Part shown: piece by piece, positions 25,839-40,955 of the stretch
Layout of the letters: every line of letters starts with the position of its first letter
Position numbering within the stretch: position 1 is the stretch's first letter
Assembly (NCBI GenBank): GCA_022750115.1
Contig: JAKIWI010000001.1
Span: 222,419-286,418 of the forward strand
Source: Thermoplasmata archaeon
Lineage (GTDB): Archaea; Thermoplasmatota; Thermoplasmata; Lutacidiplasmatales; UBA184
Direction of reading: 5' to 3'
Length of the DNA: 64,000 nucleotides
The notes under the pieces: generated by a model
What the model was told of the DNA's origin: nothing
Database searches by the model: none
Seen by the model: the letters and a program-made list of their open reading frames with translations, nothing else
Position numbers and translations under genes: made by a program

Positions 25839-25953
25839 CGCGGGGAGGGGGAATTTCCGGCCGCCGGTCGGTCCCGACGCCCGTTTGAACCCCCGAGGTG
25901 AAATCACCACAGGATTAGCAATCCTGCGCCTTACCGGGCTGGGCCATCCCCGC
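25839..25953 (-). tRNA. tRNA-Ser(GCT) with a 31-nt intron in the T-loop (59/60; intron 25853-25883)
   Basis: Minus strand: acceptor GCGGGGA/TCCCCGC plus discriminator G, anticodon arm CAGGA-TTGCTAA-TCCTG, variable arm GGTG-ATTT-CACC, T arm GGGGG-TTCAAA[intron]T-CCCCC. Mature length 84 nt, no encoded CCA. Confidence 0.9.
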
Positions 25954-25986: not shown

Positions 25987-26053
25987 GTTCGGCCGTCGAG
26001 CGCCGCTGCCCCGTTATGTACCGAGGTCGCGCTCGGCGACCGGGGGAGACGCA

Positions 26054-40797: not shown

Positions 40798-40870
40798 GCC
40801 GCCATAGCTCAGTCGGGAGAGCGGCTGATTTGTAATCAGCAGGTCGGGAGTTCAATCCTCCCTGGCGGCT
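40798..40870 (+). tRNA. tRNA-Thr(TGT)
   Basis: Acceptor GCCGCCA/TGGCGGC, anticodon arm GCTGA-TTTGTAA-TCAGC, T arm GGGAG-TTCAATC-CTCCC, discriminator T, no CCA. TTTATC about 28 nt upstream. Confidence 0.96.
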
Positions 40871-40955
40871 CGTCGACGCCCCAACGGCCGGTGAAGCGCA
40901 CGTTGGGAACGTTTATCGCTCGCTCTGGCTAGCCCGCGTCGGATACGCGTCGACG

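Follow-up and report, generated by a model that had tools for sequence, protein, structure and literature searches.

The minus strand of a 64,000-nt stretch of DNA from a Thermoplasmata archaeon (hereafter the window) carries a serine tRNA cloverleaf with the anticodon GCU whose T-loop is interrupted by 31 nt. This raises the questions of whether such a gene is functional, which enzyme would remove the insert, and whether other tRNA genes of this lineage share the arrangement.

Structure of the interrupted tRNA-Ser(GCU) gene

The letters of the locus agree with those transcribed in the preliminary description, which had placed a Ser(GCT) gene with an intron between tRNA positions 59 and 60 here (Table 1). 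When the insert was removed in silico, ARAGORN recognized an 84-nt tRNA-Ser(gct) whose acceptor stem has 7 bp and whose D-stem has 3 bp, with a long variable arm, a 7-nt T-loop (TTCAAAT) and G as the discriminator; the unspliced 115 nt gave no call. The 5′ exon comprises the 5′ strand of the acceptor stem, the D-arm, the anticodon arm (GCT), the long variable arm, the 5′ strand of the T-stem and T-loop positions 54–59 (TTCAAA). The 3′ exon comprises T60, the 3′ strands of the T-stem (CCCCC) and the acceptor stem (TCCCCGC) and the discriminator G, and CCA is not encoded. Within the intron, the first base ends the 5′ bulge and is followed by an inner hairpin, by GGAA opposite the T-loop TTCA, and by the AT of the 3′ bulge. 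With an intron-form covariance model (R1, described below), whose training set includes this sequence, the 115 nt scored 89.5 bits. Judged from its sequence, the locus is a genuine tRNA-Ser gene with a 31-base intron of the archaeal protein-spliced type in the T-loop.

Table 1 Coordinates of the features discussed (window positions unless a sequence identifier is given)
Feature	Location	Strand	Remarks
tRNA-Ser(GCT) gene with intron	25839..25953	-	pre-tRNA 115 nt; mature 84 nt without CCA
5′ exon, 70 nt	25884..25953	-	cloverleaf by ARAGORN after intron deletion
Intron at 59/60, 31 nt	25853..25883	-	deletion test, fold and parse of relatives
3′ exon, 14 nt	25839..25852	-	7/7 acceptor pairs
TATA-like box TTTAAA	25980-25985	-	at -32 to -27
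CGAA just upstream of TATA-like box	25988-25991	-	by-eye reading
tRNA-Thr(TGT)	40798-40871	+	no intron; Rfam 69.3 bits
EndA gene	L001:718-1779
Gln CTG, miscalled	G000:C3:3585-3659
His GTG, miscalled	G000:C5:60013-60103
Glu CTC, miscalled	G000:C10:196844-196915
Lys TTT	G000:C16:960-1096		D-arm insertion and 59/60 intron
Leu TAG	L076:1641-1785 = G000:C3:3725-3869		D-arm insertion and 59/60 intron
Initiator-like Met CAT	G000:C1:95872-95979		D-arm insertion
Arg GCG	G000:C24:36249-36353		D-arm insertion
Gln CTG-Leu TAG pair	G000:C3:3585-3869		33 nt apart
Gly TCC-Ser TGA pair	G000:C1:143442-143695		67 nt apart
Asn GTT-Met CAT pair	G000:C20:26462-26673		33 nt apart
Ser(GCT) of genome G026	L027:1474-1571		59/60 intron of 13 nt
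Ser(GCT) of genome G028	L028:1501-1596		59/60 intron of 11 nt

The junctions have the geometry proposed in the preliminary description, with the T-stem GGGGG/CCCCC as the outer helix, the bulges AA^C and AT^T, a central helix of TTCA (T-loop 54–57) and GGAA (intron) with three pairs and an A.G mismatch, and an inner intron hairpin of -14.8 kcal/mol. In the RNAfold minimum free energy structure of the isolated arm (-29.3 kcal/mol), the outer helix and the hairpin are formed and the central helix is open; the proposed fold comes to -25.3 kcal/mol, and a suboptimal fold with a 3-bp central helix to -26.8 kcal/mol. [quoted passage not shown] The upstream TATA box is borne out as well: an A/T box at -33 to -27 is present in all 23 genus orthologues, with the core TTAA in 21 and TTAT in 2, and it is preceded by CGAA in 14 of the 23 (both by eye).

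As the preliminary description anticipated, standard annotation misses this gene. Neither ARAGORN nor Rfam at its gathering score reports Ser(GCT), and the only tRNA called in the window is tRNA-Thr(TGT). With the Rfam tRNA model run permissively, 25894-25953, which is the 5′ part of Ser(GCT) only, scores 25.1 bits (cut-off 29). In the window's own genome, which is 90% complete, the Ser(GCT) locus has one match, and no second Ser(GCT) gene was found by ARAGORN without introns or by Rfam, so that there is no intact rival copy among the sequences searched; a second copy could still lie on the missing ~10% of the genome. The other 'gct' call made by ARAGORN requires a 399-nt intron and is without an Rfam match. 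AGC codons are in use in this genome, accounting for 4 of the 17 Ser codons in the gene of the splicing endonuclease EndA and for 4 of the 22 in that of the ligase RtcB.

Conservation of the intron among relatives

The 115-nt locus was searched in 40 related genomes, 24 of which are other genomes of the same genus. End-to-end matches were found in 22 of these 24 at 82–97% identity, and no match in the remaining two, which are 83% and 75% complete; genomes from other families match bases 1–70 only. All 23 genus loci recovered, that of the window included, can be parsed with a 30–35 nt intron at 59/60 and 7/7 acceptor pairs, and TTCA lies opposite GGRR in 22 of them and opposite TGAA in one. Beyond the genus, three genomes of two other families (G038 in one, G026 and G028 in the other) have 59/60 introns of 37, 13 and 11 nt, respectively, each with four Watson-Crick central pairs, and four further related genomes have an uninterrupted TTCRAAT T-loop. 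The introns of G026 and G028, which belong to another family of the same order, are AT-rich; their central helix is the 4-bp TTCA/TGAA, and an inner helix is lacking. Their lengths are close to the 11 nt that a review gives for the shortest archaeal tRNA intron.

The hBHBh′ geometry, with two 3-nt bulges on opposite strands and a helix of four positions between them, is shared by all 26 of the Ser(GCT) loci with an intron. At the fourth central position, 22 of the 23 genus loci have A.G, and the other four of the 26 have a Watson-Crick pair. The motif is near-strict, short of textbook-strict; the recurrent A57.G mismatch may leave room for some tolerance on the part of the endonuclease.

Covariation was analyzed in an alignment of 22 rows from published genomes (21 distinct), from which the row of the unpublished genome G019 was left out; its addition gave the same result. 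Among the 21 distinct rows, the only change in the exon helices is a compensatory one, a U-A/A-U switch in the anticodon stem. Changes on both sides are seen in nine pairs, eight of which belong to the intron hairpin (eight of its nine pairs). Pairing cells amount to 94.9%, compared with 89.4% in shuffled controls (22 rows), and the covariation score of 0.173 (0.077 shuffled) was reached by none of 500 shuffles. Pairing with slid partners was at most 59%, a control over which the counted structure is favoured because it was derived from one aligned sequence. The central helix is kept through U-A to U-G changes. Among the genus orthologues, the exons are almost invariant while the intron and the flanks diverge, and it is the structure of the intron, not its sequence, that is conserved among relatives.

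Splicing endonuclease and ligase

Searching the genome returned a single EndA gene, with two PF01974 matches in one ORF of 353 aa. Two stretches each of PF02778 and PF01974 make up two tandem N+C repeats, the layout of an α′2 enzyme, and neither a separate β subunit nor a three-unit EndA was found in this genome search. Of the enzymes with a solved structure, the fused one of M. kandleri (5X89, E 2.7e-29) and the α′2 one of A. fulgidus (PDB 1R0V, 1RLV, 2GJW; E 8.6e-23) match best. The latter is the same kind of two-repeat single chain, aligned over residues 59–335, though shorter (305 aa). In the alignments, the catalytic regions of both correspond to the C-terminal repeat (KYG...H..YLV...VRKD), with the Tyr, His and Lys positions of A. 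fulgidus matched. The N-terminal repeat, which was inspected for the catalytic triad by eye, is closest to the β unit of M. kandleri (5X89). RtcB is also present (577.5 bits).

The enzyme type, which the preliminary description had left to be determined, could thus be assigned as α′2, whereas a specificity loop is not present at the site where one would be expected. According to PMC3488258, the specificity loop of ARMAN-2 sits at the position of Lys175 in A. fulgidus, and the loop of the crenarchaeal enzymes occupies the equivalent place in the structure; by sequence alignment only, the EndA described here is gapless relative to A. fulgidus around Lys175 (the ASL site), and no extra loop precedes the catalytic His. 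Relative to A. fulgidus, the catalytic repeat has a 6-residue insertion, GGRAVA (~residues 229–234), after the β-hairpin. In an alignment with 17 relatives (an eighteenth ORF, which encodes a different protein, was disregarded), this segment has a conserved Arg or Lys in 15 of 15 long-form EndAs, including those of families with 1–2 T-loop introns.

A match to the EndA of the window's genome was found in 40 of 41 relatives. EndA occurs in two forms in the class (relatives L033-L062, L105-L110), one of ~350 aa with a well-kept N-terminal repeat and one of ~290 aa. Two short-form EndAs (292–299 aa) from two families are missing ~20 residues at the insertion region, and the genomes sampled from these families gave no match to a T-loop intron (0 of 12 and 0 of 3), an association that may simply follow phylogeny.

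Further T-loop introns in the genome

ARAGORN without introns reports 29 tRNA genes in the 2.12 Mb genome. Intron-bearing genes were sought by brute-force deletions around weak Rfam hits, a scan for the T-loop motif, boundary checks and the covariance model R1, which was trained on 12 intron-bearing genes and one relative. Single deletions yielded many alternatives per locus, from which only those that combined the highest BHB score with a mature tRNA of standard length were kept. As a result, 44 tRNA genes were found: 24 without introns, four with canonical introns (Met, Tyr, Leu TAA and Trp, by ARAGORN), two interrupted in the D-arm alone (an initiator-like Met and Arg GCG, by eye) and at least 14 with a 28–38 nt intron at 59/60, namely Gly TCC, Gln CTG, His GTG, Asp GTC, Glu CTC, Asn GTT, Ala GGC, Ser CGA, Ser GCT, Ser GGA, Arg TCG, Arg TCT, Lys TTT and Leu TAG. 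Introns are therefore carried by 20 of the 44 genes, 16 of them at non-canonical sites. No gene for Ala CGC or Pro TGG turned up in this genome, which is 90% complete.

The 14 T-loop introns are of one design. Both bulges are present in every one, and the boundary check gave 7/7 acceptor pairs for 12 of the 14 genes. Where position 57 is G (six genes), all four central positions pair; where it is A (eight genes), the fourth is mismatched, as A.G in seven and as A.C in Glu CTC. With R1, the 12 training genes scored 71.5–90.9 bits and Lys TTT, outside the training set, 69.1 bits, compared with at most 59.4 bits for intron-less tRNAs. A strict T-loop-intron scan gave 12 loci in the real genome and one in the reversed genome; one of the 12 is an artefact, the intron-less Ala TGC, and the scan loses Glu CTC and Arg TCG, in which the inner helix does not start from the first position, and Leu TAG, which has a D-arm intron. 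Similarity among the 14 introns is weak (best pair score 11, shuffle maximum 7.0 ± 1.6, reached in 7 of 200 shuffles), and for this reason recent transposition of introns between genes is not claimed.

Standard tools deal with these genes poorly. Rfam lists 11 of the 14 as truncated matches of 18–32 bits, and ARAGORN takes Gln CTG, His GTG (given a length of 91 nt) and Glu CTC for genes without an intron and assigns them incorrect 3′ halves; the real 3′ exons lie 32–34 nt beyond. Genomes of this lineage annotated with ARAGORN or Rfam would consequently appear to lack essential tRNAs. Run with introns on the whole genome, ARAGORN reported numerous implausible genes whose introns would span hundreds to thousands of bases; its short-intron calls for Arg tct (contig C1) and Ser cga (contig C6) look like false positives in coding DNA, and when it was given pre-spliced candidates, it re-assigned them confusingly and revealed no true double-intron genes.

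In four tRNA genes, the D-arm or D-loop contains an extra insertion of ~27–30 nt; Lys TTT and Leu TAG have it besides their 59/60 intron and are thus two-intron genes. A BHB search combined with ARAGORN indicated a clear BHB only for the insertion in Leu TAG (27 nt, 4/4 central pairs, 8-bp inner helix). Intron-bearing tRNA genes also lie in tight pairs (Table 1).

Distribution in the class

The model R1 was run on 150 other genomes of the class at E ≤ 1e-11 (~64 bits); one of the genus genomes (G128) is unpublished. With the window's own genome included, 105 of 151 genomes have a match to this intron-form model. All 15 genomes of the window's family match, with 11–13 matches per genome in the genus and 6–13 in four other genera, and other families mostly have 1–5 matches per genome. 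Four families gave no match at this threshold (0/12, 0/3, 0/2 and 0/2), below which short introns of 11–13 nt would score. When 19 example loci were examined, 18, four of them from the window's family, parsed with a 19–37 nt intron at 59/60, and one was unparsed. The 14 examples from other families are Lys TTT (eight, in three families), Arg TCT (three, in one family) and, with a single locus apiece, Lys CTT, Arg CCT and Ser GCT, Lys(TTT) being the commonest host of a 59/60 intron among them.

These counts suggest a wider scenario, in which 59/60 introns have come to occupy about a third of the tRNA genes (14/44) of one soil Thermoplasmata family under an ordinary α′2 EndA without known loops, an expansion in a single family from a class-wide low-copy state (1–5 per genome). 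We consider the case for this scenario evenly balanced. If it is true, the architecture of EndA would not be what limits the spread of non-canonical introns, and the site with its universal TTCR would be open in any tRNA. Fourteen T-loop introns are more than expected for this archaeal branch, and they offer a natural test of position versus motif strictness as the constraint on α′2 enzymes.

Proposed processing and alternative explanations

The window locus is very probably the working tRNA-Ser(GCU) gene of this genome, spliced from a BHB in the T-arm by the α′2 EndA. Transcription from its own TATA promoter would give a 115-nt precursor, in which the T-stem would serve as the outer helix and UUCA (54–57) would pair with GGAA, the four intron bases before the last two. 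Two 3-nt bulges would flank this helix of four positions, with the remaining intron folded as a hairpin, and the T-arm BHB would then be laid out exactly as the canonical 37/38 BHB is in the anticodon arm. Each bulge would be cut by the homodimeric α′2 EndA behind its second base, the exons would then be ligated by RtcB, and addition of CCA would follow; we infer cleavage, ligation and the exact cut sites from the gene structure, the motif with its conservation and covariation, and the presence of both enzymes. A search of sequencing runs returned one soil run of DNA type (0.05 share of words) and none of RNA. With the universal TTCR of its T-loop, any tRNA would bring one half of the central helix, and this offers a plausible explanation for the repeated colonization of 59/60.

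The preliminary description agreed that the intron is real and had it cut by a broad-specificity EndA evolved in this lineage. Such relaxation could account for the non-Watson-Crick fourth central pair in the eight A57 introns, would suit an intron load far above that given for α2 and α4 lineages in reviews (PMC4090602), and might be sought in the 6-residue insertion of the catalytic repeat, with its basic residue kept in 15 aligned long-form EndAs. However, the one gene has the α′2 layout with neither a β subunit nor a third unit, nothing is inserted at the CSL/ASL site (AFU Lys175) or before the catalytic His, families with no more than 1–2 T-loop introns have this long-form EndA as well, and both bulges are retained in all 14 introns. 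Efficient cutting of relaxed motifs is reported only for (αβ)2 and ε2 enzymes with a specific loop (PMC5829648), and special loops are reportedly needed for relaxed motif forms only (PMC5829648, PMC6379350). A relaxed enzyme thus appears unlikely, and an α′2 EndA without known loops acting on near-strict motifs fits a strict motif at an unusual place.

Two further explanations would deny splicing altogether. That the 31 nt mark a pseudogene or an integration scar might be suspected from the failure of standard tools to call Ser(GCT), but a dead gene would hardly keep its exons almost invariant while intron and flanks diverge, nor a covarying BHB and hairpin and a conserved promoter box; moreover, it is the only Ser(GCT) copy found, AGC codons are used, and the same design occurs in 13 other essential tRNAs, making a non-functional gene extremely improbable. 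Equally improbable is an insert that is never removed, leaving a tRNA with a giant T-loop or a hairpin with a role in the mature RNA. Nothing specific supports such retention, intron length varies from 11 to 37 nt between families, and the constraint on the 3′ end of the intron to pair with TTCA, together with 3-nt bulges kept in 26 sequences, fits recognition by an endonuclease. The tRNA elbow is formed by contact between the T-loop and the D-loop, and a T-loop interrupted in this way could not make that usual contact. Splicing of a functional gene by the α′2 EndA is the explanation carried forward here.

Comparison with known tRNA introns

On the sequence evidence, the intron in the window is of the ordinary archaeal BHB kind, at a site that is rare but has been documented before, and the notable part is the scale on which such introns occur in an α′2 lineage. 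In the literature searched, with subscription journals and PDF supplements outside its reach, no description of T-loop introns in Thermoplasmata or Thermoplasmatota was found. The paper on Lutacidiplasmatales (PMC9287336) reports ~69% GC and ~2.1 Mb for the type genus, figures that this genome matches, and introns are not discussed in its four mentions of tRNA. According to PMC4090602, Euryarchaeota with α4 or α2 enzymes have introns in fewer than 10% of their tRNA genes, one each and all at the canonical 37/38, and reviews link abundant or non-canonical tRNA introns to (αβ)2 or ε2 endonucleases.

Within the same broad class, the tRNA-Lys(TTT) of Ca. Methanomassiliicoccus intestinalis (139 nt) is listed as 'novel' in the tRNAscan-SE 2.0 comparison (PMC8450103). 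Compared by this listing, not by sequence, it is likewise a long, intron-bearing gene missed by older software, although it is a single gene per genome as against 14 here; the listing implies that low-copy cases in the class are at least implicit in databases.

One documented case of introns at this position is ARMAN-2 (Ca. Micrarchaeum acidiphilum), where PMC3239211 places them at 59/60 in pre-tRNA-Cys(GCA) and at 53/54 and 59/60 in pre-tRNA-Pro(GGG). The introns described here resemble those of ARMAN-2 in being of the protein-spliced type at 59/60 with the T-stem as the outer helix. They differ in that the ARMAN-2 Cys intron has the relaxed hBH form and is served by an ε2 EndA with a specificity loop, whereas both bulges are present here and the enzyme is an α′2 EndA without the loop. 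In Thermoproteales, multiple and non-canonical introns are known and intron transposition has been proposed (Sugahara 2008, Fujishima 2010, as summarized in PMC4090602). As there, a large share of the tRNA genes is interrupted, some genes (Lys TTT and Leu TAG here) have two introns, and BHB motifs lie at non-canonical sites. Unlike in Thermoproteales, where an (αβ)2 EndA with the Crenarchaea-specific loop is associated with introns at many positions, 14 of the 18 non-canonical introns here, the other four of which were placed by eye, lie at the single site 59/60.
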